Source: Alphaproteobacteria bacterium (lineage in GTDB: Bacteria > Pseudomonadota > Alphaproteobacteria > MPNO01). Taken from it: a stretch of 64,000 nucleotides of DNA. The DNA is taken from the NCBI GenBank assembly GCA_965248835.1, contig CBDFLJ010000001.1, positions 1,472,001 through 1,536,000 on the forward strand, in the 5' to 3' direction. Position 1 is the first letter of the stretch, and each line of letters begins with the position of its first letter. Both the position numbers and the translations under genes were made by a program. The notes under the pieces are model-generated. The model did no database searches and was not told where the DNA came from. It was given only the letters and a program-made list of their open reading frames with translations. This document shows, in pieces, positions 28,160-51,333 of the stretch.

Positions 28160-28284
28160 CGCCGGCCCGGCAGTCCCGGCCGAGCGAGATGCCGCAAATG
28201 CGCAGCGGCGGACCATGTCTGCTGCCGAGTTGCCGCGCTCGGCGCACGCGGTCACAATCGCCGCGATCAAGCCATGCGGATCGG

Positions 28285-29484
28285 ATGATGACGGGAACGG
28301 ACGGATCGGGGTACGGGCGCATCGGCGTGGTGCCCGAGGAAGACCACACGCTGAGCCGGGTCGGGTTCGGGACGCCGATGGGCGAGATGCTGCGGCGCTA
28401 TTGGCAGCCGGTCTGCCTGTCCGACGAGCTTGGCGCGCTGCCCAAGCGGGTGCGCATCCTGGGCGAGGACCTCGTGGCGTTCCGCGACAGGTCCGGTCGG
28501 GCCGGGCTGCTCTACGCCCATTGCATCCATCGCGGCACCTCGCTCGAGTTCGGCCAGATCGACGATGCCGGCATCCGATGCTGCTATCACGGCTGGCACT
28601 TCGACGTCGAAGGGCGCTGCCTCGACCAGCCCGCCGAGCCGCTGGGCAGCGACTACAAGGACAAGGTCCGCCAGCCCTGGTACCCGGTCCACGAATATCA
28701 CGGGCTGGTCTTCGCCTATATGGGGCCGCCGGACAGGAAGCCGCCGTTTCGCAGGTACAGCGTCCTGGAGCGTCCGGGCTCCGCGTACGGCGCCTACCGC
28801 GACCACAGCCGCGGCGAAATCGCGCAATGCAACTGGCTCCAGCTCCAGGAGAACGCCATCGATGCCTGGCACACCTACGTGCTGCACACCTGGCATGGCG
28901 GGGTGTTCAACTTCACCGACGCCTATTCGGCCCGCCCGGAGATCGACTTCGTCGATGTCGGCCACGGCATCCAGTACATCCGCGAGGCGACGCTGCCCAA
29001 CGGCAACCGGTTCCTGCGCGTCAGCGAGGTGATCGTGCCGACCGCGCGCTGCATCCCGCCGGCGACGGTGCTGGGTGATGACCCCGGGCGCGAGACCGAG
29101 CCGGCCCGACGGATCGGCTGGTGGGTGCCGGTCGACGACACGAGCTCGGTCGGCTTCCACATCAACCTGTCGCCGCCGGGCAGCGACACCCCGCCGCGGC
29201 GCACCGCGCTGGCGATGCCGCCGCGCAGCTACGCGGACCGCCAGCGCCTGCCCGATGACTGGGAGGCGCAGGTCAGCCAGGGCCCGATTGCCAGCCGGGC
29301 CCGCGAGCATCTGGGCACCTCGGACAGGGGGGTGGTGATGTTCCGCCGCCTGCTGACGGCCGGGCTGGCCGCGGTCGCGCGCGGCCAGGACCCGCCGGGG
29401 TTGCTGCGCGGGGCCGACGCGCCGGTCCTTCGCATCGGCGCCCGCAACGCGGTCACCGCGCCGGAGGGGATGCTCGCCCAATGA
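28285..29484 (+). CDS. Rieske oxygenase alpha subunit, phthalate-dioxygenase-like group
   Basis: GTPMGEMLRRYWQP, CIH...CCYH, CNWLQLQENAIDAWH...LH, VSQGPI, EHLGTSDRGV. Confidence 0.9.
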   Translation: MMTGTDGSGYGRIGVVPEEDHTLSRVGFGTPMGEMLRRYWQPVCLSDELGALPKRVRILGEDLVAFRDRSGRAGLLYAHCIHRGTSLEFGQIDDAGIRCCYHGWHFDVEGRCLDQPAEPLGSDYKDKVRQPWYPVHEYHGLVFAYMGPPDRKPPFRRYSVLERPGSAYGAYRDHSRGEIAQCNWLQLQENAIDAWHTYVLHTWHGGVFNFTDAYSARPEIDFVDVGHGIQYIREATLPNGNRFLRVSEVIVPTARCIPPATVLGDDPGRETEPARRIGWWVPVDDTSSVGFHINLSPPGSDTPPRRTALAMPPRSYADRQRLPDDWEAQVSQGPIASRAREHLGTSDRGVVMFRRLLTAGLAAVARGQDPPGLLRGADAPVLRIGARNAVTAPEGMLAQ

Positions 29485-31883
29485 CCGTAGAGGAGGCGGC
29501 CGGACAGCTCGCCGCCGCGCGGCCGCAACTCGTCGGCGCCCGGATCACCCGGCGGGAAGACCCCCGCCTGCTGCGCGGCGACGGCTGCTTCCTCGACGAC
29601 CGGCACGTCCACGGCATGGCGCACCTCGCCTTCCGGCGCAGCGAGACCGCGCACGGCCGGCTCGCCGGCATCGATGCCGCGGCCGCGCTTGCGATGCCGG
29701 GTGTCATCGGCGTTTACACCGCCGCGGATCTCGCTTCGATCGCCCGGCCTATCCGCGCCACCTCGCGGATGCGCGACTACCATGCGACGCCTCTGCGGCC
29801 GCTGGCCCTCGACAAGGTGCGCCATGTCGGCGAGCCGGTGGCCGCGGTGGTCGCCGAAAGCCGATACGCGGCCGAGGATGCGGCCGGGCGGATCACGCTC
29901 GACATCGAACCGCTGCCGAGCCTGGTCGACGCGGCGGCCGCGGCCGCGGATCGGGACACGCTGCTTTACGAGGACGCCGGGACCAACGTGCTCGCTGTGC
30001 GCGGCTTCGGCCGCGGTGATATCGACCAGGCGATGGCACAGGCCGCGGTCCGCGTCGCCGGCCGCTTCCGGATCCACCGCAAGACGCCGGTGACGCTGGA
30101 AGCGCGCGGCGGGCTCGCCGATTACGACAAACGGAGCCGCACGCTCACCCTGCACTCCACGACCCAGATCCCCGGCATCATCCGCGACGCATTTGCCGAG
30201 ATCTTCGCGATGCCCGGCAGCCGGGTGCGGGTCATCGCATCCGATGTCGGCGGCGGGTTCGGCGCCAAGGCGACGCTGTATTCCGAGGACATATGTCTGG
30301 CGGCGCTGGCGCTGATGCTCGGCCGGCCGGTCAAATGGTCCGGCGACCGGCAGGAGGACCTGCTGTCGACCACCCAGGCGTTTGACGAGACCATCGAGGC
30401 AACGCTCGCGCTCGACGCCGACGGCACCGTGCTTGCGCTCAAAGCCGATGCGCTGGGCGATATCGGTTCCTATTCGGTCTACCCTTGGACCGCCTGCCTG
30501 GAGCCGGTCCAGGTGGTGAGCTTCCTGCCCGGGCCCTACCGGATGCCGGTCTATGACGGCCGCGTGCGGGCGGTCGCGACCAGCAAGCCCGGCGGCGGGC
30601 CCTATCGCGGGGTCGGGCGGCCGATCGCGGCCTTCGTGATCGAACGTCTGATGGACATGGCCGCGGCACGGCTCGGCATGGACCCGGTAGCGCTGCGCCG
30701 CCGCAATTTGGTGGCCGAGGACGAGTTCCCCTACAAGGCGGCCTCCGGCCTGGTCTGGGACCGCTCCAGCTTCATCGGGTGTCTCGACCGGGCCTGCGAG
30801 ACGGTCGATTACCAAGCCTTGCGCAACCAGCGCGATGCCGCGCGCACCGCCGGCCGCTGGGCCGGGGTCGGCGTCGCCTGCTATGCCGAGCTCACCGGGC
30901 TGGGCTCGCGCATCTCGGTCGCGCCCGGCATGCCGGTCAACACCGGGACCGAAGGGGCTTCGGTCGAGATCGATGCGACCGGTTCGGTCACCGCCTTCTT
31001 CGGGGTCTGTTCTCAGGGTCAGGGAATCGAGACTACGCTGGCCCAGGTGGTGGCCCAGGAGCTCGGCGCCGGTATCGGGGACATCCATGTCGATCTCGGC
31101 GACAGTGCGACCAACGCCCACAGCACCGGCACCTATGCCAGCCGCAGCGCGGTGCTCGCCGGCGGCGCCGGCATTCTGGCTGCGCGCGCGGTCCGCGCAA
31201 AAATCCTCCGCTGCGCGGCCCATCTGCTGGAAGCCGCCGAGCCCGACATCGAGATCGCCAACGGCATCGTTCAGGTCGCCGGCACCGATCGGAGGATGAA
31301 TTTTGCCGAGCTCGCCAGGGCGGTCTACGCCGACATGGGCCGGCTGCCCAAGGAGTTGCGCGACGAAATCGGCAACCTTGAAGCGCGCAGGGTATACGAT
31401 CCGTTCTTCGCAACCGCGACGTCGGCCACCCATATCGCGATGGTCGAGATCGACCGAGAGACCTGCGCGGTCTCGGTCGGCCGCTATGTCGTGGTCGAGG
31501 ACTGCGGCCGGGTGATCAACCCGCTGATCGCCGACGGCCAGGCCCATGGCGGCGTCGCCCAGGGGATCGGTGCGGCCCTCCTGGAGGAGGTGGTCCACGA
31601 CCAGACAGGCCAGATGCTCACGGCCAGCCTCGCCGACTATCTCGTGCCGTCGTCCTGCGACATCCCGCGCATGGAGGTCGTCCACCTCGAGGACGAGCCG
31701 CCGGGCACGCTGGGCGGCGTCCGCGGGCTGGGCGAGGGCGGCACCATCGGCGGCTTGGCGGTGATCGCCAACGCGGTCGCCGATGCGCTGTCGCCGCTCG
31801 GCGTCGTGGTGACCGAGGTGCCGCTGACCCCGGCCCGGATCTTCGGGCTGGTCGAGGCGGCGCGCTCGGCGGCCGAACCCTGA
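29481..31883 (+). CDS. Xanthine dehydrogenase/CoxL-family molybdopterin-binding large subunit (QorL-like features)
   Basis: RREDPRLLRG, GGGFGAK, YPW, PYRGVGR, QGQG, GTYASR, GLGEGG; 4-nt overlap with the upstream Rieske gene. Confidence 0.92.
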   Translation: MTVEEAAGQLAAARPQLVGARITRREDPRLLRGDGCFLDDRHVHGMAHLAFRRSETAHGRLAGIDAAAALAMPGVIGVYTAADLASIARPIRATSRMRDYHATPLRPLALDKVRHVGEPVAAVVAESRYAAEDAAGRITLDIEPLPSLVDAAAAAADRDTLLYEDAGTNVLAVRGFGRGDIDQAMAQAAVRVAGRFRIHRKTPVTLEARGGLADYDKRSRTLTLHSTTQIPGIIRDAFAEIFAMPGSRVRVIASDVGGGFGAKATLYSEDICLAALALMLGRPVKWSGDRQEDLLSTTQAFDETIEATLALDADGTVLALKADALGDIGSYSVYPWTACLEPVQVVSFLPGPYRMPVYDGRVRAVATSKPGGGPYRGVGRPIAAFVIERLMDMAAARLGMDPVALRRRNLVAEDEFPYKAASGLVWDRSSFIGCLDRACETVDYQALRNQRDAARTAGRWAGVGVACYAELTGLGSRISVAPGMPVNTGTEGASVEIDATGSVTAFFGVCSQGQGIETTLAQVVAQELGAGIGDIHVDLGDSATNAHSTGTYASRSAVLAGGAGILAARAVRAKILRCAAHLLEAAEPDIEIANGIVQVAGTDRRMNFAELARAVYADMGRLPKELRDEIGNLEARRVYDPFFATATSATHIAMVEIDRETCAVSVGRYVVVEDCGRVINPLIADGQAHGGVAQGIGAALLEEVVHDQTGQMLTASLADYLVPSSCDIPRMEVVHLEDEPPGTLGGVRGLGEGGTIGGLAVIANAVADALSPLGVVVTEVPLTPARIFGLVEAARSAAEP

Positions 31884-35135: not shown

Positions 35136-36014
35136 TCACACCCCGTTTGCGAAATCGACAATCAGGCGGTTGAAGGCGTCCGGGTGCTCGCGGTAGGTGA
35201 AGTGGCCGGCCTGGTTGAAGATGTGCATGTCGGTCCGCTTCTCCTTCTCGGTCAGCATCTCGAACAGTCCGAACCCCTGGTCGAGCGTCGCCGTCGGGTC
35301 GTTGGCGCCCCAGACCAGAAGGTTCGGCCGCTGGGTGCCGCGGCTCAACAGTGTATCGAAGGTCTGGGCCTTCTGGCGGCCGAGATGGGGCAGGAACAGG
35401 CTCCTCAGCAGCCCGCCGGCGTTCATCTTCTCCGCCGCCTCGATGCATTTGGGCAGCCCGGCGACGCGCACGAGCTCGTCCAGCCAGTCCTCGGTCACGC
35501 ACGAGGCGTGGTAGGAGTAGTGCTCCATCACCCAGCGCTGACTTTCGCGGCTGAGGTTCGGCCGCGGCTTGTCCCGGAACACCAGGCCGGTCCGGCTCTC
35601 GCCCGGCCCCAGCGTGCCGGTATCGACCATGATGTTGGACGCGATGCGCGCGGGGTTGTCCAGCGTCATTCGGCAGGTCAGGTAGGCGCCGCGGGAATGG
35701 CCGATGATGTGGCATTCGCCGAGGTCAAGGACTTCCAGGCAGCGCAGCGCGTGGTCGACCACCGCCTGCATGGTGTAGTCCTCGTCCGTGCGCGGGTTGT
35801 CGGTCTCGCCCTGTCCGATCTTGTCGATCGCCACCACGCGGCAGTGCTCGGCCAGCCCGTCGAAATTGAGGTTCCAGTCCGCAGCGCAGTCCGCGCCGTC
35901 GAGCGAGCCGAAATTGCCGCCATGGAACAGCACCACGGTCGGTCCGGTCCCTGCCTCGAAATAGCGCGTTCGGATGCCGTCGACGTCGATGAATTTTCCC
36001 TGGCTCAGATCCAT
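35136..36014 (-). CDS. Alpha/beta-fold hydrolase, paralogue 1
   Basis: HGG oxyanion motif, GHSRG nucleophile elbow, WGAND, GHF; 292 aa. Confidence 0.92.
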   Translation of the reverse strand: MDLSQGKFIDVDGIRTRYFEAGTGPTVVLFHGGNFGSLDGADCAADWNLNFDGLAEHCRVVAIDKIGQGETDNPRTDEDYTMQAVVDHALRCLEVLDLGECHIIGHSRGAYLTCRMTLDNPARIASNIMVDTGTLGPGESRTGLVFRDKPRPNLSRESQRWVMEHYSYHASCVTEDWLDELVRVAGLPKCIEAAEKMNAGGLLRSLFLPHLGRQKAQTFDTLLSRGTQRPNLLVWGANDPTATLDQGFGLFEMLTEKEKRTDMHIFNQAGHFTYREHPDAFNRLIVDFANGV

Positions 36015-36028
36015 AGCGTGTCCTCCCC

Positions 36029-36907
36029 TCAGGCGGCGTGAACGAAGCTTTTGATCACTTCGTTGAACCGCTTGGGATGCTCGCGGTAGCTGAAGTGGGC
36101 GGCGTGGTCGAACACCTGCCAGCGGGCGCAGCGCTCCTTCTCGGCCAGGATCCGATAGAGCGCCTCCGTCTGGGCGTGCGAGACCGTCTCGTCGTTGCGG
36201 CTCCAGACCAACAGCACCGGGCGCTGGATGCCGCGCGCGCCGAGGGTCCTGAACATCGCTTCCTTGTCGGCCAGAAGCCCGGGCAGGAATTTGGTCCAGA
36301 GAAATCCCTCGTCATTCATCTTGGCGACCGCCTGGCGGTATTCTGGACGCTCGGTGATCCTGACCAGGGCATCGAGCCACGCCTCGCTCACATGCGAGGG
36401 ATCGTAGGAATATTGCTCCAGCACCCAGCGCTGGGCCGCCCGGCTCAAGGCCGGTTCCGGATTGTTGGCGAAGACGTATTCGTTACGCCCGGTGCCCGGC
36501 GCGCAGGTGTTGCTGTTGATGATCGTGCATGTCGCCACCAGGTCGGGGTGATCGACGGTCACCCGGCAGGTCACATAGCCGCCGCGCGAATGGCCGATCA
36601 GGTGGGCGTTGTCCACCCGCAGCGCCCGCAATGTGGCCGCGGCATGGCGGACGACCGCTTCCATCGTGTAGTCGTCGTCGACCTTGGGGTTGCCGGTATG
36701 GCCCTGGCCCAGCTTGTCGAAGGCGATCACCCGGGCCCATTCCGCGAGCCCGTCGAAATTGAGGTCCCAGTCCTCCGATGCGTCCGCCGAGGTGGTCGCG
36801 CCGAAATGACCGCCATGGACCAGGACCAGGGTCGGGCCCTGTCCCTTCTCGAAGTAACGCGTTCGAACGCCGTCGACGTCGACGAATTTCTCCTCGCAGC
36901 TTGGCAT
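36029..36907 (-). CDS. Alpha/beta-fold hydrolase, paralogue 2
   Basis: HGG, GHSRG, WSRND, AHF; 292 aa from ATG 36907 with AGGAGG RBS. Confidence 0.92.
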   Translation of the reverse strand: MPSCEEKFVDVDGVRTRYFEKGQGPTLVLVHGGHFGATTSADASEDWDLNFDGLAEWARVIAFDKLGQGHTGNPKVDDDYTMEAVVRHAAATLRALRVDNAHLIGHSRGGYVTCRVTVDHPDLVATCTIINSNTCAPGTGRNEYVFANNPEPALSRAAQRWVLEQYSYDPSHVSEAWLDALVRITERPEYRQAVAKMNDEGFLWTKFLPGLLADKEAMFRTLGARGIQRPVLLVWSRNDETVSHAQTEALYRILAEKERCARWQVFDHAAHFSYREHPKRFNEVIKSFVHAA

Positions 36908-37014
36908 CGCCGCCTCCTGATGCACCGATCGGTTCGCCGGCGGGGGAACTATAGCGCGGCCGCGCGCGCGATGGGATGGTTTGCCGGCCGGCCGGGGTCG
37001 AATATGCTTGTGCG

Positions 37015-38133
37015 ATGACCGCACCCGGACCACCGTTCCGCGCCGAACATGTCGGCAGCTTCGTCCGGCCTGACCGGCTGCTCGATGCCGTGCGCGCGCA
37101 CCGCGCCGGCACGATCGATGACGCCGCGCTCCGGGCCGTCCAGGACGATACCATCGCCGAGGTCGTCGCCTTCCAGGACGCGGTCGGCATGCCTTCGGTT
37201 ACCGACGGAGAGTTCCGCAGGCGTTCGTGGTCGGCGGGCGTGATCGATGCGCTGGACGGGCTGGGCCTGCGCGAAGAAGGGGTGTTGACGTTCAAGACCG
37301 CCTATTCCGACCTCGGCGTCGCGTCATCGCCCTATGCCGCGCGGCGGCTGTCGCGCCGCCGCCCGATCGTCGCAGACGACTACCGCTACCTGAAATCGCT
37401 CGCGCCGAAGGGCGTGCCGAAGGTGACCATGGCTTCGCCCCCGGTGCTGCACTTCTTCCTCGGACCGCGCAGCTTCGAGACCACGGCCTATCCCGACCGT
37501 GATGCGTTCTTCGCCGATCTGGCGCGGATCTACCGGCAGGAGATCGACGATCTCGCCGATGCAGGCTGCACCTATCTGCAGCTCGACGACACCGCCCTGC
37601 CGTGCAGTTGCGATGCGACCGCACGGGCCGGCGTGCGCGCCCGCGGCGAGGATCCCGATGGCCTGACCGAGGCTTACGTCAAGCTGATCAACGACGCGGT
37701 CGCCGGCCGACCCGACGGTATGACCGTCGCCGTTCACATGTGCCGCGGCAACCTCAAGGGCATGTGGATGGCCGAGGGCGGCTACGAGCCGATCGCCGAG
37801 CGGGTGCTGGGCGGGCTCGACGTCGACCTCTTCCTGATGGAATACGATACCGACCGGGCGGGCGATTTCTCGCCGCTGCGCCACTTGCCCGCCGGCAAGG
37901 TCGCTGTCCTCGGGCTGATCAGCACCAAGACGCCGGAACTGGAGTCGCGCGAAGACATCCTGCACCGGATCGACCTGGCCGCCCAGATGGTTCCGATCGA
38001 GCGTCTGGCGATCGGCCCGCAATGCGGGTTCGCCTCGGGCGGCGGCGGCGGTCAGGTCGTCGGCCACGACGACACGCGACGGAAGCTCGAGCTGGTCCTG
38101 GAGATCGCCCGCGAGGTCTGGGGCACCACGTGA
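37015..38133 (+). CDS. Cobalamin-independent methionine synthase II family (MetE C-terminal-half-only Zn enzyme)
   Basis: RAEHVGS, TDGEFRR, LQLDD, HMCRGN, LMEYD, PQCGFAS (Zn ligands H, C, E, C); 372 aa. Confidence 0.9.
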   Translation: MTAPGPPFRAEHVGSFVRPDRLLDAVRAHRAGTIDDAALRAVQDDTIAEVVAFQDAVGMPSVTDGEFRRRSWSAGVIDALDGLGLREEGVLTFKTAYSDLGVASSPYAARRLSRRRPIVADDYRYLKSLAPKGVPKVTMASPPVLHFFLGPRSFETTAYPDRDAFFADLARIYRQEIDDLADAGCTYLQLDDTALPCSCDATARAGVRARGEDPDGLTEAYVKLINDAVAGRPDGMTVAVHMCRGNLKGMWMAEGGYEPIAERVLGGLDVDLFLMEYDTDRAGDFSPLRHLPAGKVAVLGLISTKTPELESREDILHRIDLAAQMVPIERLAIGPQCGFASGGGGGQVVGHDDTRRKLELVLEIAREVWGTT

Positions 38134-38213: not shown

Positions 38214-39386
38214 ATGGCAAACAGGACCAGCCAGGCCGACAGGGACAGAAGGTTCTACGCGCCCTATCTCGATGCGGCGTGGGGGCTCAAGAACCATTGG
38301 TATCCGGGCCTGTTCAGCCACGAGATCGCCGACGGCGAGGTCAAGGGCATCCAGATCGCCGGTGTGCCGATCCTGCTCAGGCGCGCCAAGGGCACGGTGC
38401 ACGCGCTGCTCGACCGCTGCGTCCATCGCGGGGTGAAGCTGTCGCTCCATCCGACCTGCCTGACCGAGGACACCGTGTCCTGCTGGTATCACGGCTTCAC
38501 CTACAACCTCGAGGACGGCGGCCTGGTCTCGATCGTGGCCGCGCCCGACGACGAGATCATCGGCAAGGTCAAGCTGCGCACCTTTCCGGTCCAGGAGTTC
38601 AAGGGCATCATCTTCGTCTTCGTCGGCGATGAAGGCTACGCGCCGGTCCCGCCGCTTTCCGATGACCTGCCGCCGGTCATTGCCGGGGACTACGAATGGC
38701 GCGCGGCCCACCCGCTGGACGAGGACGCGGCGATCCTCGGCATCCATCGCACCGGAAACGCCAACTGGCGGCTCGCGGTCGAGAACGGCTTCGATCCGGG
38801 CCATGTGCTGATCCACCGCGACAACATCCTGGTGCTCGCTTCCGGCCGTTCCCTGGCGCTGGGCTACAAGCCGGTCGATGACGGCGCCATCAAATCCTTC
38901 GAGGGCGACGGCCCCAAGGGTCTGATGAACATGTACGACACCGACAGCTACGAGCCGGTGGTCAAGAACGAGCGGCTCAACCTGACCAGTGCCGCGCGCA
39001 CCGAGTTCAAGTTCGTCGGCATCCGCACCTCGATGTTCCTGCCGGGCGTCTTGATGGTGGAGAACTTCCCCGAACGCGGGCTGGCGCAGTACGAATGGTA
39101 CGTCCCGATCGACGACGAGCGCCACGAGTACTGGCAGATTCTGGTGAAATGGTGTCCGGACGACGACGCGCTTGCCCAGTTCGAATACCGGTTCGAGCAC
39201 TATTACGAGTCGATCGTGCTGCGCGACTTCAACGACCGCGATCTCGATGCGCGCCAGGCGATGCAGCCGTTCTATGCCAATGGCGGCTGGCAGGAGGAAA
39301 ACCTGTGCAGCCTGGACTCGGTGATCGTCGGCTGGCGCAAGCTGGTCTCGCGCTACAACCGCGGCATCCAATCGCCGCAACCCTAG
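38214..39386 (+). CDS. oxoO: Rieske oxygenase of the OxoO/CarAa clade (2-oxo-1,2-dihydroquinoline 8-monooxygenase-like)
   Basis: DAAWGLKNHWYP, CVHRG...CWYHG, ENGFDPGHVLIH, LPGVLMVEN, QYEWYVPI, WRKLVSRYNRGI closely match recalled P. putida 86 OxoO; symbol is provisional. Confidence 0.8.
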   Translation: MANRTSQADRDRRFYAPYLDAAWGLKNHWYPGLFSHEIADGEVKGIQIAGVPILLRRAKGTVHALLDRCVHRGVKLSLHPTCLTEDTVSCWYHGFTYNLEDGGLVSIVAAPDDEIIGKVKLRTFPVQEFKGIIFVFVGDEGYAPVPPLSDDLPPVIAGDYEWRAAHPLDEDAAILGIHRTGNANWRLAVENGFDPGHVLIHRDNILVLASGRSLALGYKPVDDGAIKSFEGDGPKGLMNMYDTDSYEPVVKNERLNLTSAARTEFKFVGIRTSMFLPGVLMVENFPERGLAQYEWYVPIDDERHEYWQILVKWCPDDDALAQFEYRFEHYYESIVLRDFNDRDLDARQAMQPFYANGGWQEENLCSLDSVIVGWRKLVSRYNRGIQSPQP

Positions 39387-39389
39387 ACC

Positions 39390-40412
39390 ATGGCTGACAT
39401 CCGACTGGTCTTTCGCGACGGCCAAGAGCAACGGGTCTCTCCGGAGCCCGGCGAAACCGTGCTCCAGGCCGCGCTGCGCTGTGGCCTGGCGCTGGTTCAC
39501 CAGTGCGAATCGGGAAGCTGCGGGACCTGCATCGTCCGGCTGCTCGACGGCCAGACCGAAACCGTTCCCGGCCGCACGCTCGCGCTCCTGGACGGCGAGG
39601 TGCGCGACGGCTACCGCCTGGCTTGCTCGATCCGCCCGTTGGGCGCCTGCAGCTTCGGGCTCGATTATCCGGCGACCCTGCTCAGTGGACCGCAGCCGGC
39701 GGTCCGCAAGGCGAGGGTGGGGGCGCTCGACTGGGCCTCGCGCTCGGTGATCCGGCTCGACCTGGTGCTCGAGGACGCCGATGATTTCGCCTTCACCGCC
39801 GGCCAGTATGTCCGCATCCGGGTGCCCGGCACCGATCAGTGGCGGTCCTATTCGATGGCCAGCACGCCCGGCGATCTGCCGCGCATGAGCTTCCTGGTCC
39901 GCTATCTCGAAGGCGGCGCGATGTCGGGCTGGCTCGACGAGATCGCCGCGCCCGAAATGGAGATCGAGATCGACGGCCCGATGGGCTCCTTCGGTCTGGT
40001 GGAAAGCGAGGGCCCGATCCTGATGCTCGCAGGCGGGACCGGGCTCGCCCCGTTGCTTGCCATGCTCGATGCGCTGCGCGTCCGCCCGGGTCCGGCGCCT
40101 GACATCGTGCTCGGGTTCGGCTGCAACACCATCGAAGATCTGTTCTGCCTCGACGATCTCGAGCTGCGCGAATTCTGGATGCCGGGCCTGTCCTTGCGGA
40201 TCGCGGTCATGGCGGCGCCCGAAGGCGCGTTCGACGGACAGGTCGGCGATGCGGTCTCGCTGATCGAACCGGCGGATCTGGAGAAGCCGGGCCTTACGTC
40301 CTATCTTTGCGGGCCGCCGGGGATGATCGAGGCGGCGCGAAGCAGGCTGATCGACGGCGGGATCGCGCCGGAGCGCATCCGCAGCGAGCCGTTCCGCCCC
40401 AGCGAAGCCTAG
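39390..40412 (+). CDS. oxoR: Ferredoxin-NAD(P)H reductase component (N-terminal plant-type 2Fe-2S + FAD + NAD), OxoR-like
   Basis: CESGSCGTC...LAC, RSYS, GGAMS, AGGTGLAP, YLCGPPGM, EPF; 3 nt after oxoO-like gene; symbol inferred from context. Confidence 0.78.
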   Translation: MADIRLVFRDGQEQRVSPEPGETVLQAALRCGLALVHQCESGSCGTCIVRLLDGQTETVPGRTLALLDGEVRDGYRLACSIRPLGACSFGLDYPATLLSGPQPAVRKARVGALDWASRSVIRLDLVLEDADDFAFTAGQYVRIRVPGTDQWRSYSMASTPGDLPRMSFLVRYLEGGAMSGWLDEIAAPEMEIEIDGPMGSFGLVESEGPILMLAGGTGLAPLLAMLDALRVRPGPAPDIVLGFGCNTIEDLFCLDDLELREFWMPGLSLRIAVMAAPEGAFDGQVGDAVSLIEPADLEKPGLTSYLCGPPGMIEAARSRLIDGGIAPERIRSEPFRPSEA

Positions 40413-40458: not shown

Positions 40459-41790
40459 ATGGCACATCCCGGGCTTTCCGCCGAACAGAAGGAATGGTTC
40501 GACAAGGCCGATGCGCTGATCGACGAGGATCGGCTCCGCAGGTTCAACTTCGATTTGACCGCGATCCACTGCCCGACGGGGCGCGAGCGGGAAGCGAGCG
40601 AGTTCATGGTCCGGGCGCTCGCCGAGGCGGGGCTGGAGGCGTGGTACCAGCCGATGGGCGAGGAATCGGGCAACGCCGCGGCGCGGTTGAGGGGCAGCGG
40701 CGGAGGACCGAGCCTGCTGCTCTACGCGCCGATCGACACGCACCTTGAAGGCGATGCCGCAACCGACGTCCCATGGGTCGGCCCGCGTCTGCGCGCCGAC
40801 ATGGTGCCCGAGCCCGAGATCCGCGACGGGTTGGTCATCGGGCTCGGCGCGGCCAACCCCAAGGCCATGGTCACCACCCAGGTCGAGGCCGCGCGCGTGG
40901 TGCGTGCCGCCGACGTCCCGCTGAAGGGTGACCTGCTCGTGGCGTTTGCCGGCGGCGGCATGCCGGTCGACCTCGCCGGGCCCGGCAACCGCGGGCTCAG
41001 CGACGGCGTCTTCCACCTGCTGACCCGGGGGGTCTATGCCGATTTCGCGCTGGTGATGAAGCCGGGCAACGCGGTCTATTACGAGGAACCGGGCCTGTGC
41101 TGGTTCAAGGTCTCGGTCAAGGGGACGATGTGCTATGCTGGCATGACGCGCGGCATCCCCGGCTTCCGCAGCTCGATCGTGCCGGCGGCGACCGTGATTA
41201 CCGAGCTCGAGGCCTGGCTGCCGGAATATGCCGAGCGCAACAGCTCCGGCCAGATCATGCCCAATGGCTGGGTCGCCGGCGTCCAATCGGGCTGGCCCGA
41301 ACGGGTCGCCTTCCCCTCGGCGACGACCGAGATCTATCTCGACATCAGGTGCAGCCCGCGCACACCGCCGGCCGAGGTCGCCGCCCAGTTCGGCGAGGCG
41401 GTCGAAGCCATCCGCGCGCGCCACCCGGACTTCGAGCTCGATTGGGAAATGATCGCCTCGATCCCCGGTGCGAGCACCGATCCGGAGAACTGGATCATCC
41501 AATCCGCCACCCGGGCTTGGGAGACGATCGAGGGCAGACCGCACGAGCCGCCGCGCCGGACCGGGGGGCAGACCGACATCTCGACCATCCGCAATCTCGG
41601 CATCCCGACGGCGCGTACCGGTTGGCTCGCCATGCCCGAGACGGCGCCCGAAGAGCTCAAGGAAGGGCTCGGCGGCATGGGCGTCAGCAACCCGCCCGAC
41701 CTCGCCCACACCTGCCGCAAGCTGGTTTATTCGATCATCGACACCTGTATGCGCACCCGCGAGGAGGTCGGCTGCATCGGCCGGCCGTGA
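40459..41790 (+). CDS. M20/ArgE-DapE-fold protein lacking canonical metal ligands
   Basis: Overall ArgE-like layout (PTGRE, NAAARL, SLLLYAPID, GLGAANPK, LKGDL, dimerisation domain, GQTD) with ligand positions substituted. Confidence 0.8.
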   Translation: MAHPGLSAEQKEWFDKADALIDEDRLRRFNFDLTAIHCPTGREREASEFMVRALAEAGLEAWYQPMGEESGNAAARLRGSGGGPSLLLYAPIDTHLEGDAATDVPWVGPRLRADMVPEPEIRDGLVIGLGAANPKAMVTTQVEAARVVRAADVPLKGDLLVAFAGGGMPVDLAGPGNRGLSDGVFHLLTRGVYADFALVMKPGNAVYYEEPGLCWFKVSVKGTMCYAGMTRGIPGFRSSIVPAATVITELEAWLPEYAERNSSGQIMPNGWVAGVQSGWPERVAFPSATTEIYLDIRCSPRTPPAEVAAQFGEAVEAIRARHPDFELDWEMIASIPGASTDPENWIIQSATRAWETIEGRPHEPPRRTGGQTDISTIRNLGIPTARTGWLAMPETAPEELKEGLGGMGVSNPPDLAHTCRKLVYSIIDTCMRTREEVGCIGRP

Positions 41791-41796
41791 GCCGGA

Positions 41797-42864
41797 TCAG
41801 CCGGCCAGCCGGCGGATGATCCGGCGCATGGCAAGCAGACCGTCATCGGCATCGAGCGTGCCGCGCGGGTCGACGTCGCCCGGATTGCCCGCCGCGCCTG
41901 CCAGATCGACCGCCCGCTGCTGGGCCTCGTAGACCGCCAGATCCTCAGGCGGGATCGCCCGCATCTGCTGCTCGAAGACCGCGCGCCGGGCGTCCGGCAC
42001 CCACGCGGCGGGCAGCGAGACCGCCCAGAACTGCCGTGTCGTGCTCGGGCTGACCGGGGTCAGCGCGTGATAGACCACGAACCCCCACAGACCCTGGTCG
42101 TCGATCCAGCCCTCCGGGCCCGGTCCCGCGCCGGCCGCGCAAGAGCCGCTGTTGACGTAGATGTAGGACGGTGGGGTGTAGACGCTGGCCTGCCAGCGGT
42201 CGATGGTTCCGCCATAGCCGGCGTATTCGGTGAACGACGGGGCCGGCGGGATGTTGCTCATCCACCGCGTGACCGTCACGCAATCGCCCTCCACCGTGGT
42301 CGCGATGGACGCGGACTCGGCCAGTGCGCGGTTGCCGGTGGTGGAGGAATGGACGAACGCCAGATGCGACAGGTCGAGCAGGTTGTCGAGGATCAGCCGA
42401 TAGCCGCACCGGGCCTCGATCGTCCCGCTGTGGGTGATCCAGTCTTCGTCGACCAGCCGGGTCTGGAAGTCCGGGACCAAGGCAGGATCGACCCGGTCGG
42501 GATCGCCCATCCAGACGAACACCCAGCCGAGATTTTCCGCCGTCGGGTAGCTGCGGACCCGCGCCCAGCCGGGCACCGAATCCTGGCCCGGCACGTGCAC
42601 GCAGCGCCCGTCGCGGCCAAAGACCAGACCGTGATACCCGCATTCCAGCCGGTCGCCGTCGCGCCGTCCGGCCGACAGCGGCAGGTTGCGGTGCGCGCAG
42701 CGGTCCTCGAGGGCGACCACCGAGCCGTCCTCGGCACGGTACAGCGCCACCATCTCGTCCAGCATGACACGGCCGATCGGCGCGTGGCCGACCTCCTCGC
42801 TCCAGGCCGCGACGTACCACGCCTGGCGGATCAGCGTGCGCGGATCGAATTCGGTATCGGTCAT
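41797..42864 (-). CDS. Rieske non-heme iron oxygenase alpha subunit, VanA-like
   Basis: QAWYVAA, CAH...CGYH, DNLLDLSHLAFVH, EDLAV; ATG 42864. Confidence 0.9.
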   Translation of the reverse strand: MTDTEFDPRTLIRQAWYVAAWSEEVGHAPIGRVMLDEMVALYRAEDGSVVALEDRCAHRNLPLSAGRRDGDRLECGYHGLVFGRDGRCVHVPGQDSVPGWARVRSYPTAENLGWVFVWMGDPDRVDPALVPDFQTRLVDEDWITHSGTIEARCGYRLILDNLLDLSHLAFVHSSTTGNRALAESASIATTVEGDCVTVTRWMSNIPPAPSFTEYAGYGGTIDRWQASVYTPPSYIYVNSGSCAAGAGPGPEGWIDDQGLWGFVVYHALTPVSPSTTRQFWAVSLPAAWVPDARRAVFEQQMRAIPPEDLAVYEAQQRAVDLAGAAGNPGDVDPRGTLDADDGLLAMRRIIRRLAG

Positions 42865-42892
42865 CTCCCCCGCCGAGCTGCCCCGCTCCCGC

Positions 42893-43369
42893 CTATGATA
42901 GCCGCACTCTTGCGCCCAATTCTGCACAATCGGCATCGGTCTTCAGGCCGCAGGCGCGGATTCCGTACACCGCCAGCTCGTCGTCGCGTTCCTGGGCATC
43001 GCCGGTCACGCCGACTGCACCGATAACCTCTGCCCGGTCGTTGCGGATAAGCTGTCCACCGCCTTCGGGAAAGATCCGCTCGCCCGATGCCTTGATCAAA
43101 TAGTCCATGAACATCGGCCGCTCCTCGGCGCGAATGCGCACCAGGTTGGACGACCGTCCGAGCGCCAGCGCCGCATAGGCTTTGCCGTACGCCATCTCGA
43201 AGCGCAGCATGGCGCCGTGGTCCTCTTTCTGGAATGCCTTGAGGACTGCGCCCGGCTCGACCACCACCGCGGCCAGCGGCCGGCAGTCGAGCTCACGCCC
43301 GCGCGCGAAAATCCTGTCGATGACCGCGTTGGCCTGCTCGAGCGTGATCATCGTCCATTGCCTGGGCAT
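42893..43369 (-). CDS. GlcG/HbpS family heme-binding protein (DUF336)
   Basis: ITLEQA, AYGKAYAA, GGGQLI, IGAVGVTG, DDELA; start 43369 or 43351. Confidence 0.85.
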   Translation of the reverse strand: MPRQWTMITLEQANAVIDRIFARGRELDCRPLAAVVVEPGAVLKAFQKEDHGAMLRFEMAYGKAYAALALGRSSNLVRIRAEERPMFMDYLIKASGERIFPEGGGQLIRNDRAEVIGAVGVTGDAQERDDELAVYGIRACGLKTDADCAELGARVRLS

Positions 43370-47430: not shown

Positions 47431-49164
47431 TCAGTCGCGAGTGGCGGTGCCGTCGGGCAGGATGCGAACGCCGTAGTTGCTGAGCGCGCTCTCGCCGGAG
47501 ATGTAGCCGTGGCTGACGTCGCGCGCCACCGCCGCCGGCGGGCGCTCCAGCGGCACGCCGTAGCCGCCGCCGCCGCCGGCCTCGACGCACACGGCGTCGC
47601 CGGGCTCGAGCGGGACGGCGTCAGCCTTGTAATACGTCTCCGGTTCCGTGCCGGCCGCGCGCATCACCGAAACCCGGCCCGATTTCCCGTCTCTGCCGCC
47701 GAGAACGCCCCACGGCGGGCAGCCGATGCGGTCGAAGTTGACCCACAGCCTGCACGGCGCCAGCACGCGGTAGCGCTTGCGAAAACCCAGCCCGCCGCGC
47801 CACTTGCCCGCGCCGCCGGAATCCTCGCGCAGCGCGAGCTCCTCGTAGCGGAACGGGTACATCGATTCCTGAAGCTCCATCGGGATGATCCGCGAATCGC
47901 CGTGCGCCATGGTGCGGAACGGGCCGGAGCCGTCATGGGTCGCGCACGCACCCCAGCCGCCGTGGGCGGAATCGTAGCAGTCGAACCAGCTCCCGTCGGT
48001 GCGGTGACCGTAGATCCGAACCGAGGAATAGGTGCCGAAATGTGCACCCGTGACGGTCTCGGGAAGCGCCGGCGCCAGCGCCTTGATCAGCGTGTCGATG
48101 ATGGTCGGGAACGGGAACCCGTAATGACCCATCGGTGCCGTCGGCCGGGCGCTGACCAGCGTCCCGTCGGGCAGGATCAGCTTGAGCGGCCGGAAGGTCC
48201 CCTCGTTCGCCGGCTCGCCGCGGGCGATGAGGTACATGAACGCGACGCGGGCGGTGGTCACGCCGCCGCCGTGGCGCCCCGAATTGATCCGGCCCTCGAC
48301 CTGTTCGGGCATCTCGGAATAATCGACCGTCATCACCGAGCCCTCGACCACGACCCGGACCTTGATCGGGATGCGCTGTTCGCGCATGCCGTCGTTGTCG
48401 AGGAAGGACTCCGCTTCGTAGACGCCGTCCGGAATCGCCTCGATCCGCTTGCGGCTCGCCGCCTCGCACTGGTCAAGGATGATCTCAAGGGCCGCCCACC
48501 AGGTCTCCAGCCCGGCCTTCTCGGCCAACCCCCTGGTGAGGTCGCGCCCCATAAGGCAGCCGCCGAGCTGCGCCTCGATGTCGCCCAACAGCTCGGTCGG
48601 GAAACGGGTATTGCATTCGATGATGCGATAGACCTCCTCGATCGGCTCTCCGCGCGAATGGATCTTTACCGAGCGGTACTGAATGCCTTCCGCGAAGATG
48701 TCGCTCGCCCGGTAGGTGCCGACCTCGCCGCCGATGTCGATCCAGTGGCAGTTGATGGCGAAGAAGCCGATCAGCTCCTCTGCCGCACCGGCAAAGACCG
48801 GCGTGTACATGACGGTGTTGTTGAGATGCTGGCCCTGGACGGCGGCGTGGTTGCACAGAACGACGTCGCCCGGATGGAACCGCGCCTTGCCGTAGACCTG
48901 GAGCCCGTCGCGCACCGCGGCGCCCACCGCGTCGGCGACGAAGACCGGCATGCCGCCGTTGCATTGGGCGATCAGCCGACCGTCCGCGTCGGTCATGCCA
49001 ACCGCGTAGTCCTTGTACTCGTATATGTAGGGGCTGAAGGCGGTGCGGGTGATGTTGGCATCGATCTGGTCGTTGATCGAGATGATGCCGTGGCGGATGA
49101 CCTCCAAGGTGATCGGATCGACCGCACGGTTCTGCGTCGGGCCTGTGGTCTGCCTGGTCGCCAT
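47431..49164 (-). CDS. Hydantoinase B/oxoprolinase family subunit
   Basis: VDPITLEVI, RTAFS, KDY, HLNN, HWIDIGG, IPDGVYE, GGAGKWRGG, GGGGGYG; ATG 49164. Confidence 0.92.
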   Translation of the reverse strand: MATRQTTGPTQNRAVDPITLEVIRHGIISINDQIDANITRTAFSPYIYEYKDYAVGMTDADGRLIAQCNGGMPVFVADAVGAAVRDGLQVYGKARFHPGDVVLCNHAAVQGQHLNNTVMYTPVFAGAAEELIGFFAINCHWIDIGGEVGTYRASDIFAEGIQYRSVKIHSRGEPIEEVYRIIECNTRFPTELLGDIEAQLGGCLMGRDLTRGLAEKAGLETWWAALEIILDQCEAASRKRIEAIPDGVYEAESFLDNDGMREQRIPIKVRVVVEGSVMTVDYSEMPEQVEGRINSGRHGGGVTTARVAFMYLIARGEPANEGTFRPLKLILPDGTLVSARPTAPMGHYGFPFPTIIDTLIKALAPALPETVTGAHFGTYSSVRIYGHRTDGSWFDCYDSAHGGWGACATHDGSGPFRTMAHGDSRIIPMELQESMYPFRYEELALREDSGGAGKWRGGLGFRKRYRVLAPCRLWVNFDRIGCPPWGVLGGRDGKSGRVSVMRAAGTEPETYYKADAVPLEPGDAVCVEAGGGGGYGVPLERPPAAVARDVSHGYISGESALSNYGVRILPDGTATRD

Positions 49165-49169
49165 GTTGC

Positions 49170-51218
49170 CTACCCCGCCCCGCAGGTGATGCGGATCTCG
49201 TGGAACGGACCGATCTCGAAGCTGTCGCCGGGCCAGACCGCGGTGGTCGCGCCGTATTCCTCGATGATCGCCGGTCCGGCGCCGCGGAAGCCGGAGGCCA
49301 GATCGTAGCGGTCGAAGATCGCGGTCTCGACCCACCCGGCCTCGCGCGAGAACAGAACCGGGCGGGTGCGCCGGCCGCCGCCGCCCGCGGCGCGATGGAG
49401 CCCGGCGAGCTGCGGCCGTCGCAGCCGCGCGAAGGCCGAAAGGTGAAGCGCCTGGATCTCTGCGGCGGCACGCCGGTCGGCATGGCCGTAGCGGCGCTCA
49501 TAATCACGGTCGAAGGTCGCGCGGATGGCGTCCGGCCCGTCGAGCCCGGGCAGCGGCACCTTGATGTTGTGGCGCTGGCCGCGATATCGCATCTCGGCCG
49601 CGCGCTCGAAATAGATTTCCGTCACGCCGACCTCCTCGCGCAGGACCATCCCGGCGTCGCGCTCCATCTGTTCGAACAGCCCGGCCATCCCCGCGACCGT
49701 CGTGTGTTCGAGCGCGCCGGTGAAGGTCCGCGCGATGTCCATGCGCGCATCGGCCAGCATCATGCCGGTGGCCGAGAAATTTCCGGGCTCCGGCGGGATG
49801 ATCACCGTCGGGATCGACAATTCGCGGGCAAGGGCTGCGGCATGCAGCGGCCCGGCGCCGCCGTAGCTGAACAGGACGAAGTCACGCGGGTCGCGGCCGT
49901 GCTCGACGGTCTGGCGGCGTATGGCGCCGGCCATCACCACGGTCGCGATCGAAAGGATGCCCTCGGCAAGCGCGACCGCGCCGTCTTCGCCGGCAAAGCC
50001 CAGCCGGCCGGCGATGCCTTCCAGAAGCGCGGCTCGGGCGGCCTCGGCATCGAGCAGCAGCTCGCCGCCGAGGAACCGGTCCGGCGCCAGGCGGCCCAAC
50101 AACAGGTTGGCATCGGTTACCGTCGGCTCGGTGCCGCCGCCGCCGTAGCAGACCGGGCCCGGGTTGGAGCCGGCCGAGCGCGGGCCGACATGCAGCCGCG
50201 CCTGGTCGTCGAGCCAGGCGATCGAGCCGCCGCCCGAGCCCACCTCGATGATGTCGATCACCGGTGCCTTGATCGGGAAGCCTTGAACGTATCCGCCGGC
50301 GTAATAGGTCGAGTTCACCGCGTAGCGGCCGGCCTCGACGAGGGCGCACTTGGCCGTCGTGCCCCCCATGTCGAACGCGATAACGTTGTCCAGGCCGAGC
50401 GAATCGGCGTAGGCGGCGGTGCCGATGCAGCCGCCGATCGGGCCCGACTCGACCAAGGCGATGGGCTCGCGGCGGGCGCGCTCGGCCGACAGCACGCCGC
50501 CGTTCGAGCCCATCATGAACAGCGGTCCGGAGAACCCGCCCCCGCGCAGCTCGTCCTCGAGCCGGCCCAGATAGCCCGAGACCTGAGGGCCGACATAGGC
50601 GTTGGCCGCCGCCGTCGCGGTGCGCTCGTATTCGTACCACTCCCGGCACAGCGCCGCGCCGGAGCAGACATAAATGTCCGGCAGAAGCCCGCGCAGCACG
50701 GCGACCGCGCGCTCCTCGTGGACCGGGTTGGCGTAGGCATTGAGGAACGAGACCGCGACCGCCTCGACGTCCTGTCGGGCCATCGCCTCGGCGGTTGCGG
50801 CGAGCTCGTCCTCGGCCAACGGTAAGACGATCTCGCCTCCGGTCCCGATGCGCTCGGTGACCTCGAAACGCCTGTCGCGCGGAATCAGAGGCGCATCGCG
50901 CCGATAGTAGAGGTCGAACGGGTCCGGCCGGTTGCCGCGCGCGATCTCCAGCACGTCGCGGAAGCCCCGCGTGGTGACCAGCGCGGCGCGGCTTCCCCGG
51001 CGCTGGATGAGCGCATTGATGACCAGTGTGGTGCCGTGGTTGACCAGGCTCGCCTCCGCCGATGCGATGCCGGCCTTGGCGAGGCAGGCGAGGATGCCGT
51101 CGACGAAATTCCCGTAGGTCGTCGCGCTCTTGGCGTAGAGCACGTTCGCGGTCTCGCGGTCGAGGGCGACCAGATCGGTGAACGTCCCTCCGATGTCGAT
51201 GGCGAGCGCATAGCGCAT
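49170..51218 (-). CDS. Hydantoinase A/oxoprolinase family subunit (ASKHA ATPase)
   Basis: IDIGGTFTD, HGTT, ESGP, DMGGTT, GSGGGS, SAGSNPGPVCY, YGGAGPLH; ATG 51218. Confidence 0.93.
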   Translation of the reverse strand: MRYALAIDIGGTFTDLVALDRETANVLYAKSATTYGNFVDGILACLAKAGIASAEASLVNHGTTLVINALIQRRGSRAALVTTRGFRDVLEIARGNRPDPFDLYYRRDAPLIPRDRRFEVTERIGTGGEIVLPLAEDELAATAEAMARQDVEAVAVSFLNAYANPVHEERAVAVLRGLLPDIYVCSGAALCREWYEYERTATAAANAYVGPQVSGYLGRLEDELRGGGFSGPLFMMGSNGGVLSAERARREPIALVESGPIGGCIGTAAYADSLGLDNVIAFDMGGTTAKCALVEAGRYAVNSTYYAGGYVQGFPIKAPVIDIIEVGSGGGSIAWLDDQARLHVGPRSAGSNPGPVCYGGGGTEPTVTDANLLLGRLAPDRFLGGELLLDAEAARAALLEGIAGRLGFAGEDGAVALAEGILSIATVVMAGAIRRQTVEHGRDPRDFVLFSYGGAGPLHAAALARELSIPTVIIPPEPGNFSATGMMLADARMDIARTFTGALEHTTVAGMAGLFEQMERDAGMVLREEVGVTEIYFERAAEMRYRGQRHNIKVPLPGLDGPDAIRATFDRDYERRYGHADRRAAAEIQALHLSAFARLRRPQLAGLHRAAGGGGRRTRPVLFSREAGWVETAIFDRYDLASGFRGAGPAIIEEYGATTAVWPGDSFEIGPFHEIRITCGAG

Positions 51219-51333
51219 CCGGCGAATTCCAGTCTCCGTACTGCCGGGCGATGTTAGTGGACGCGTGCAGGGCGTTCTAGCGCCGCGCTGCGGCCCGCCG
51301 TTATGATCGAGTCCGGCACGGTGCGCAGGAGCT

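Follow-up and report, generated by a model that had tools for sequence, protein, structure and literature searches.

What becomes of a metallohydrolase fold when the residues that should hold its metals are replaced, and what could such a protein do directly downstream of genes for aromatic ring hydroxylation? These questions are raised by a gene in a 64,000-nucleotide stretch of DNA (hereafter the window) from an Alphaproteobacteria bacterium (GenBank assembly GCA_965248835.1, contig CBDFLJ010000001.1, positions 1,472,001 to 1,536,000 of the forward strand). Its product has the fold of the M20 peptidases and deacylases. The canonical M20 site is built from the His of the HxD motif, a bridging Asp, two Glu residues, and a C-terminal His, with a general-base Glu beside the ligand Glu. 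Comparison of sequences indicates that the protein, in which the ligand positions are replaced, is one of many members of an ancient and well-conserved M20 hydrolase branch, which we name the K-clade. Because genes of this clade nearly always adjoin ring-hydroxylating oxygenases of the quinolinone/carbazole type, the gene is a good candidate for the nitrogen-removing step in the breakdown of N-containing aromatic rings.

The gene at issue, identified from its translation, a Pfam match, and a match to the 5-nitroanthranilate aminohydrolase NaaA, is the following.

40459..41790, plus strand: M20-fold protein of 443 amino acids, K-clade, NaaA-like

Its reading frame is open throughout and intact, as the initial annotation had described it. 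A putative, purine-rich ribosome-binding site, GGAAGGGG, lies about 10 nucleotides 5′ of the ATG, and a 46-nucleotide gap separates the gene from the stop codon of the reductase gene upstream. By sequence profile, membership in the M20 family is marginal, with 27.4 bits against a cutoff of 24.6 for Pfam PF01546 (Peptidase_M20), and the NCBIfam DapE-ArgE model TIGR01910 gives 50.9 bits against a cutoff of 217.6. The best PDB sequence match found by phmmer is NaaA (5K8P, E 1.7e-19). An AlphaFold2 model computed from a 71-row alignment reaches a mean predicted local distance difference test score (pLDDT) of 95.6 and a predicted template modeling score (pTM) of 0.93. When this model is used as a Foldseek query, the top 10 matches are NaaA chains only, with template modeling (TM) scores of 0.77-0.87, followed by 3PFO (a putative acetylornithine deacetylase), DapE, PepT, PahZ2, and CPG2. 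At least 285 PDB chains match the model at E ≤ 0.001, and every chain among the matches listed is an M20 enzyme. The M20 fold that had been proposed for the protein is confirmed, with its two domains, at the level of the predicted structure. In public databases its relatives carry the names 'acetylornithine deacetylase / succinyl-diaminopimelate desuccinylase-like' or 'M20 family metallopeptidase', neither of which is supported by the residues seen in K-clade sequences, and a protein atlas search with the M20-like protein leads to generic 'M20 family' clusters only.

What, then, occupies the former metal site? The short motifs quoted in the initial annotation (YAPID, GAANPK, AGGGMP, and MKP) are all present, and alignment to ligand-keeping relatives, namely NaaA and a sister group termed the E-clade below, assigns them to the ligand columns as listed here.

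HxD motif: G-H-(L/M)-D-T in NaaA and relatives, Y89-A-P91-I-D93-T in the M20-like protein
Bridging Asp and Lys: N-M-K in NaaA and relatives, N133-P134-K135 in the M20-like protein (within G130-A-A-N133-P-K135)
Glu-x-Glu acids: G-E-x-E in NaaA and relatives, G166-G167-M168-P169 in the M20-like protein (within A164-G-G-G167-M168-P169)
Ligand Glu: x-E-P in NaaA and relatives, M200-K201-P202 in the M20-like protein

Specifically, the metal-binding His has become P91, the Glu-x-Glu acids have become G167 and P169, and the ligand Glu has become K201, while D93 is retained. The new Asn and Lys that were initially noted at the site need to be reassigned: N133, which stands at the position of the bridging Asp, is shared with NaaA and with 36/36 E-clade representatives, and K135 corresponds to the Lys of the canonical GxxDxK motif, such that the new Lys is K201. 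A further statement, that the C-terminal His is missing, holds insofar as the C-terminal ligand region has no conserved His and residues 396-416 have none at all; H417 is present, though variable within the protein's subfamily. Even in the E-clade, only 14 of 36 representatives have a His in this stretch.

The replacements extend far beyond this one protein. A word-indexed search that scored 8000 candidates found 963 relatives at E ≤ 1e-3; among the 120 relatives listed, identities are 57-98%, and the source names are those of Alphaproteobacteria, Binataceae, Dehalococcoidia, KSB1, and Myxococcales. In 18 homologues from several phyla (56-80% identity), the residues Y89, P91, D93, T94, H95, N133, P134, K135, G166, G167, M168, P169, K201, P202, G370-D373, and G403-G408 are invariant, so that the motifs at the altered site are conserved among homologues. 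When 50%-identity representatives were searched exhaustively, 1105 matched at E ≤ 1e-3, and the sequences of 395-500 amino acids among the matches listed, with shorter fragments dropped and the query included, form a set of 79 representatives. This set divides by its ligand positions as follows.

K201, no His91, no acid at 165-169: 40 of 79
K201, His91 kept, no acid at 165-169: 3 of 79
E201 with His91 and the acids: 32 of 79
D201 with His91 and the acids: 4 of 79

We use K-clade for the 43 representatives with K201 and E-clade for the 36 with E or D at this position. In a quick IQ-TREE tree with a midpoint root, a branch with a support of 99 in the approximate likelihood-ratio test (SH-aLRT) separates the 43 K201 rows from the rest, and from these alignments the ligand swap seems to have happened once, long ago, with wide diversification afterward. 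One observation bears on how it may have proceeded. A paralog from the same genome (paralog 3, G000:C2:2415485-2416795, loci L083/L088) keeps the His of HxD in the sequence G-H-L-D-T and already has N-P-K, G-G-I, and K-P; this pattern, seen also in 3 of the 43 representatives of the K-clade, resembles a halfway stage of the swap.

Conservation extends to the columns of the former pocket. Both clades keep S38-P39-x-G41-x-E43, D93-T94, G128, G130, N133 (98-100% of each clade), K135 (95-100%), G166, D195, D295, R297, and D373, and D93 is invariant in 79/79 representatives. Specific to the K-clade are Y89, P91, P134, G167, M168, P169, K201 (43/43), E209, E210, F285, W354, and R386, and specific to the E-clade are H91, E167, E169, and E201. 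Former pocket positions are held by invariant polar residues, with an acid-to-base swap at 201 and a new acidic pair, E209/E210. Two His residues, H37 and H95, are invariant only in the query's own subfamily, in the alignment of 18 sequences, and by this conservation they are candidate alternative metal ligands; in the wider K-clade, position 37 is a Pro and position 95 varies. Pairwise ratios of nonsynonymous to synonymous substitution (dN/dS) between the M20-like gene and six homologues are 0.15-0.29, a range that indicates purifying selection. Lineage-specific decay toward a pseudogene is ruled out by the intact frame, by these ratios, and by the clade-wide conservation of the motifs. In a plasmid collection, tblastn found a single match (55% identity), which is unannotated on a 1.19-Mb replicon of Cupriavidus necator.

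The second part of the answer lies in the genes that accompany the M20-like gene, which is the last of four genes on the same strand between 36976 and 41790. These four, and the genes that flank them, are listed below.

36976..38133, plus strand: MetE-like gene (cobalamin-independent methionine-synthase catalytic domain; PF01717; NF005085 at 355.7 bits against a cutoff of 313)
38214..39386, plus strand: OxoO-like Rieske oxygenase alpha subunit (PF11723, homotrimeric ring hydroxylase, 4.8e-75; PF00355)
39390..40412, plus strand: reductase in which a [2Fe-2S] ferredoxin domain at the N terminus precedes FAD and NAD domains (Fer2, FAD_binding_6, NAD_binding_1)
35136-36014 and 36029-37033, minus strand: pair of alpha/beta hydrolases (Abhydrolase_1/6), divergent from the operon
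41797..42936, minus strand: VanA-type Rieske oxygenase (Rieske and VanA_C domains), convergent with the M20-like gene

The placement of the gene directly downstream of oxoO/oxoR-like genes, as initially annotated, is borne out. The best PDB match of the Rieske protein is 1Z01, 2-oxo-1,2-dihydroquinoline 8-monooxygenase (E 1.4e-127, 429 bits, residues 11-388), and the second best is the carbazole dioxygenase CarAa at about 310 bits. The reductase, BenC/AntC/MmoC-like and under the equivalog cutoffs, is presumed to be the electron donor of this oxygenase. No promoter-like or terminator-like site was seen between the four same-strand genes.

This arrangement recurs in other genomes. A pattern scan with one genome per species identified 412 loci that encode a relative, of which the best 80 were fetched, and ORFs within 6 kb of the gene were clustered for these 80 loci and the window (81 in total). 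The ORFs were chosen by a crude filter on GC content at third codon positions (GC3), and short contigs stay in the denominators, so that the following counts are approximate.

OxoO-family Rieske gene: 57 of 81 loci
alpha/beta hydrolase: 35 of 81
amidase-signature gene: 34 of 81 (97% of them same-strand; median distance -38.5 bp)
reductase: 29 of 81
short-chain dehydrogenase/reductase (SDR): 23 of 81
BphC-type extradiol dioxygenase: 18 of 81
Baeyer-Villiger-type flavin monooxygenase (BVMO): 12 of 81
Asp/Glu-racemase-like gene: 11 of 81

A Rieske gene, an amidase gene, or both are present in 72 of the 81 loci (Rieske only in 38, both in 19, amidase only in 15), and several of the remaining 9 are cut contigs. 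In many loci the Rieske gene lies directly upstream of the M20-like gene. A second sample came from metagenome contigs and covers a K-clade subfamily that shares about 40% identity with the query, with 80 of 217 relatives kept; the second fraction in each line counts only loci with at least 3 kb on both sides.

Rieske: 37 of 80 loci, 22 of 29
alpha/beta hydrolase: 45 of 80, 21 of 29
LigB-type dioxygenase: 24 of 80, 14 of 29
molybdenum hydroxylase: 9 of 80, 6 of 29

Among NCBIfam models, the LigB-type neighbor best matches those for 3-carboxyethylcatechol 2,3-dioxygenase (MhpB), the BphC-type neighbor that for biphenyl-2,3-diol dioxygenase, and the hydrolases of the related loci are HsaD/BphD-like, in each case under the curated cutoffs.

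The 4.89-Mb genome from which the window derives carries two further K-clade paralogs, 41% and 37% identical to the first. Both are directly adjacent to an Aromatic_hydrox Rieske gene; one has an amidase gene adjoining it as well, and the other is grouped with LigB, Rieske, M20-like, Amidohydro_2, and molybdenum-hydroxylase genes. The genome has an unusually rich repertoire of such functions: a Rieske oxygenase query gives 82 matches, and one for the amidase signature gives 32. Chance adjacency was considered and set aside: only about six of the 82 Rieske matches are long ones of the OxoO/CarAa family, three of which abut the three K-clade paralogs. Thus, the co-occurrence with oxoO-family genes, whose absence would in the initial annotation have counted against the proposal, is found in both samples and at all three paralogs, and the linkage of K-clade genes to OxoO/CarAa-family Rieske genes is general.

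Several modules among these loci differ in composition. Locus L061 (R. gordoniae DSM 44689) encodes a Rieske oxygenase, a reductase, a BphC-type dioxygenase, an amidase, the M20-like protein, an Asp/Glu-racemase-like protein, an alpha/beta hydrolase, and a BVMO, with the amidase and M20-like genes between the oxygenase and ring-cleavage genes. In loci of the Defluviicoccus type (L003-L008; L004:8514-9977, minus strand, and the same place in the others), a different M20 protein (PF01546, 8e-12) is encoded divergently beside the K-clade gene and adjoins alpha/beta hydrolase, Rieske, and LigB genes. Loci from Binataceae and 'delta proteobacterium' metagenome-assembled genomes (L017-L023, L028, L034, L077) have genes for Amidohydro_3, a thiamine pyrophosphate (TPP) enzyme, the Rieske oxygenase, the M20-like protein, a major intrinsic protein (MIP) channel, a zinc alcohol dehydrogenase, and an SDR; this module is without a reductase or amidase, and in 12 loci the gene after the M20-like gene encodes a MIP channel. 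A trio of alpha/beta hydrolase, amidase, and M20-like genes is found in Aromatoleum, Oxalobacteraceae, and Rhodocyclaceae (L044, L038, L036, L027, L041), where no OxoO-like Rieske gene lies within 6 kb, nor within about 10 kb in L044; the trio of L044 adjoins lower genes of a meta pathway (a DmpG-type aldolase and an FAA-family hydratase).

A pathway with a place for such a protein has been described in Rhodococcus gordoniae JH145, in which 2,8-dihydroxyquinoline is converted to 8-hydroxycoumarin and NH4+, and 8-hydroxycoumarin via 2,3-dihydroxyphenylpropionate to a meta-cleavage product (PMC9029321). The accessible part of that report names none of the enzymes of this route, and enzymes for its nitrogen-removal steps were not found named in the literature covered, which leaves out most subscription papers. 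Gene content and pathway can be compared point by point. As in the OxoO/OxoR systems of Pseudomonas putida 86 and Rhodococcus spp., the window has an adjacent OxoO-type oxygenase and reductase; the oxygenase matches OxoO nearly over its full length and above CarAa, and the reductase has the ferredoxin-FAD-NAD order. The MhpB- and BphC-like dioxygenases and meta-cleavage-product (MCP) hydrolases of related loci match the later JH145 steps in the accessible part of that source (PMC9029321). In the window itself, a complete Qor-type molybdenum hydroxylase set is not adjacent, the large subunit occurring alone, and an extradiol dioxygenase is absent within 6 kb, although the two alpha/beta hydrolases upstream are present.

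We lean, by a small measure, toward the view that the K-clade protein is a C–N hydrolase, catalyzing lactam opening and/or aryl-amine hydrolysis, that acts between OxoO-type ring hydroxylation and meta-cleavage. An oxygenase of the OxoO/CarAa type would hydroxylate beside the ring nitrogen of a benzo-fused lactam, which in the case of OxoO itself would give an 8-hydroxylated lactam of the 2-quinolinone type. The K-clade protein would then hydrolyze a C–N bond of this product, either by opening the lactam, by having water displace the resulting aryl amine, or by both. A catechol- or aminophenol-type acid would result, nitrogen would leave as ammonia, and the acid would be processed by an MhpB- or BphC-type extradiol dioxygenase and then by an MCP hydrolase. 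That the protein is catalytic, that a C–N bond is its target, and that the steps follow this order are points that we infer from fold, residues, and gene context together. The opening of a quinoxalinedione ring by a Rieske dioxygenase of two subunits, as presented in the accessible part of PMC12746152, was considered as a precedent and rejected because no M20 protein is involved.

The conversion of 2,8-dihydroxyquinoline to 8-hydroxycoumarin amounts to net hydrolysis of an amide bond and an aryl-amine bond, and an amidase together with a relative of an aryl-amine deaminase would supply both activities. Where an amidase-signature gene abuts, the amidase and the K-clade protein probably share the two C–N cleavages. 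In the amidase-free clusters, which are those of the window, the Binataceae loci, and the LigB-type loci, the K-clade protein may perform both; alternatively, it might open the lactam, and an aminophenol-type intermediate would be cleaved directly. The LigB class of enzymes includes 2-aminophenol dioxygenases, and an amidase-signature protein serves as the 2-aminomuconate deaminase in Comamonas.

How might hydrolysis proceed in such a site? The residues point to a rebuilt, possibly metal-free site in which K201, perhaps with D93, N133, E209, and E210, would stand in for the metal. Just as open is the alternative that a metal arrives with the substrate, as is the case for NaaA. A more sweeping proposal, which is possible and on the whole rather doubtful, is that the K-clade constitutes a metal-free class of M20-fold hydrolases in which K201 with D93, N133, and E209/E210 activates water and the leaving group, and which serves as the generic nitrogen-release partner of OxoO/CarAa-type oxygenases. 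Such a class would account for a long-unassigned step, removing nitrogen hydrolytically from hydroxylated benzo-fused lactams by opening the lactam and/or exchanging the aryl amine for a hydroxyl, for example by converting 8-hydroxy-2-quinolinone to 8-hydroxycoumarin and ammonia, and would span at least six phylum-level groups, with members in Pseudomonadota, Actinomycetota, Chloroflexota, Planctomycetota, Binataceae, and Entotheonellaceae lineages.

The residues and neighbors that suggest a C–N hydrolase must also be read for what else they could mean. None of the residues known to act in catalysis in NaaA or other M20 enzymes is kept, as one would expect of a pseudoenzyme, which might bind a heterocyclic substrate or product without catalysis or assist either the Rieske oxygenase or the amidase as scaffold, chaperone, or regulatory subunit. 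Its genetic coupling is tight, with the Rieske gene so often directly upstream and the amidase gene abutting, and each of the three paralogs in one genome has its own Rieske neighbor. Moreover, accessory subunits are known for some amidase-signature enzymes, for instance GatB/C for GatA and AtzG for AtzE. We nevertheless consider a pseudoenzyme unlikely, because the columns of the former active site are among the most conserved and are polar or charged (D93, N133, K135, K201, the new E209/E210, R386, and D373), which is the pattern expected of a working site, and because the partner varies between Rieske oxygenase, amidase, and both, which is unexpected for a dedicated subunit. The protein could instead still be a metalloenzyme, with a new site (for example D93 with H37 and H95, or E209/E210) or a metal chelated by the substrate, and in that event its role as a hydrolase would stand. 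Aminophenol and catechol intermediates are good chelators, D93 is invariant throughout, and H37 and H95 are so within the subfamily; NaaA structures exist in apo, substrate-only, and metal-plus-ligand forms (PDB titles). Given that the two His residues are not conserved across the wider K-clade, and that Lys201 in every K-clade representative would repel a cation at the old site, we rate a metalloenzyme as quite improbable.

Least probable of all, in our estimate, is that the protein carries out a non-hydrolytic reaction on a pathway intermediate, such as cis/trans isomerization or lactonization of a dihydroxycinnamate-type acid, tautomerization, or decarboxylation. A Lys and a pair of Glu residues in the rebuilt site fit general acid-base chemistry better than metal-activated water, and clusters of the 40%-identity subfamily consist of oxygenase, M20-like, MhpB-like, and hydrolase genes only, such that the step is defined by exclusion. 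However, we know of no M20-fold enzyme with such chemistry, and nitrogen removal is the one step of an 8-hydroxycoumarin-type route that has no other candidate in the amidase-free clusters. The earlier suggestion that the protein is a candidate for nitrogen release or lactam opening gains from the fact that its nearest characterized relative, NaaA, is a hydrolytic aryl-amine deaminase, and loses some ground to the composition of the window's own cluster.

Returning to the C–N hydrolase that we favor, a number of observations weigh against it. No amidase or extradiol dioxygenase gene lies within 6 kb of the window's M20-like gene, and the cluster starts with a MetE-like gene, so its substrate may differ. 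Among the 81 loci, 15 have an amidase gene but lack an OxoO-like Rieske gene within 6 kb, and both are missing from another 9; because the loci share ancestry, the neighbor counts are not independent events. The catalytic apparatus of NaaA is not kept in the K-clade, in which the His, both Glu residues, and the ligand Glu are gone, and thus the NaaA mechanism cannot be transferred by homology. Similarly, R289 of NaaA, whose substitution in R289A traps a tetrahedral intermediate (PDB entry title), aligns to A284/F285; F285 is found in 81% of the K-clade, Arg occurs there in 36% of the E-clade, and R/K282, a candidate structural substitute, lies two residues upstream. Finally, a K-clade member characterized for activity, metal, or substrate was not found in the literature covered, many subscription papers being outside it.

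The remainder of the window offers further context. The MetE-like gene has a counterpart in only 1 of 80 related loci (L001, 45% identity, opposite strand) and hence lies outside the conserved module. The two alpha/beta hydrolases are candidates for an MCP hydrolase or an esterase, with HsaD/BphD-like matches that are weak and far under the cutoffs. The VanA-type Rieske oxygenase, matched at 50% or more query coverage only in L001 and L008 among the related loci, probably has a separate function. Genes for a metallo-beta-lactamase (MBL)-fold protein and a CoA ligase are also divergent upstream, an HbpS-like gene is also convergent downstream, and three more Rieske genes, an amidase gene, and amidohydrolase genes are located farther out. 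A LigXa-like Rieske gene (28078-29484) is followed at once by a gene for a molybdenum-hydroxylase large subunit (29481-31883), which sits 6.3 kb upstream of the OxoO-like Rieske gene; no genes for its FAD (medium) and [2Fe-2S] (small) subunits were seen beside it. On the other side, three hydantoinase/oxoprolinase pairs stand in a row between 47431 and 60602, as follows.

47431-49335 and 49170-51458: HydB and HydA, first pair
51334-53115 and 53112-55103: HydB and HydA, second pair
55976-58111 and 58119-60602: HydB and HydA, third pair

These pairs by the Rieske cluster may provide an ATP-dependent capacity to process lactams or ketones. In addition, positions 16072-20901 encode an NAD-specific glutamate dehydrogenase of the large bacterial type (1609 amino acids), with its ACT and helical-motif domains all present.

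If the proposed role is correct, the K-clade presents a classic co-catalytic metallohydrolase fold whose site was remade with a lysine at its center and which purifying selection has maintained in hundreds of genomes, a case that would bear on the replacement of active sites in evolution and on enzyme design. It would also provide a concrete gene for the nitrogen-release step in the degradation of quinoline- and quinolinone-type compounds, a step that the accessible part of the JH145 report describes only as 'accompanied by NH4+' (PMC9029321). The pairing of a Rieske gene with a K-clade gene could serve to mark N-heteroaromatic catabolism in metagenomes.

How does this protein compare with the M20 systems already known? 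Its fold and the sub-branch that includes NaaA are established, and no description of the K-clade, of its Lys-for-Glu exchange, or of its linkage to OxoO/CarAa-type genes was found in the literature within the coverage given above. With the canonical dizinc enzymes (DapE, ArgE, CPG2, and PepT) the K-clade protein shares the catalytic domain and the dimerization or lid domain (TM 0.55-0.73), and it keeps the Asp of HxD and the Lys of GxxDxK, whereas the five metal-ligand positions and the catalytic Glu are all replaced. Where the canonical metal site would be, it has P91, N133, G166/G167, and K201, and no conserved C-terminal His.

NaaA, from Bradyrhizobium sp. (also termed 5NAA-A; PDB 5K8M, 5K8N, 5K8O, and 5K8P), stands closer, sharing both the fold and the M20 sub-branch. 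Its structure gives the top match (TM 0.83-0.87), with an identity of only about 22-23% in the structural alignment. NaaA and the E-clade retain the His of G-H-x-D together with G-E-x-E and x-E-P, which are found in 32-36 of the 36 E-clade representatives; in the K-clade protein, P91, G167, P169, and K201 occupy the places of these His and Glu ligands, and A284/F285 that of Arg289. The partners differ as well, in that NaaA works with a 5-nitrosalicylate dioxygenase and a lactonase and not with an OxoO-type oxygenase, and in NaaA the metal enters with the substrate. Regardless of these differences, the two proteins have in common D93, N133, K135, an N-terminal S-P-T-G-x-E, D295/R297, and D373, including the Asn in place of the bridging Asp that is followed by x-Lys (N133-P134-K135). 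NaaA deaminates an aromatic amine by divalent-metal-dependent hydrolysis of its C–N bond, and C–N hydrolysis is what the gene context of the K-clade calls for.

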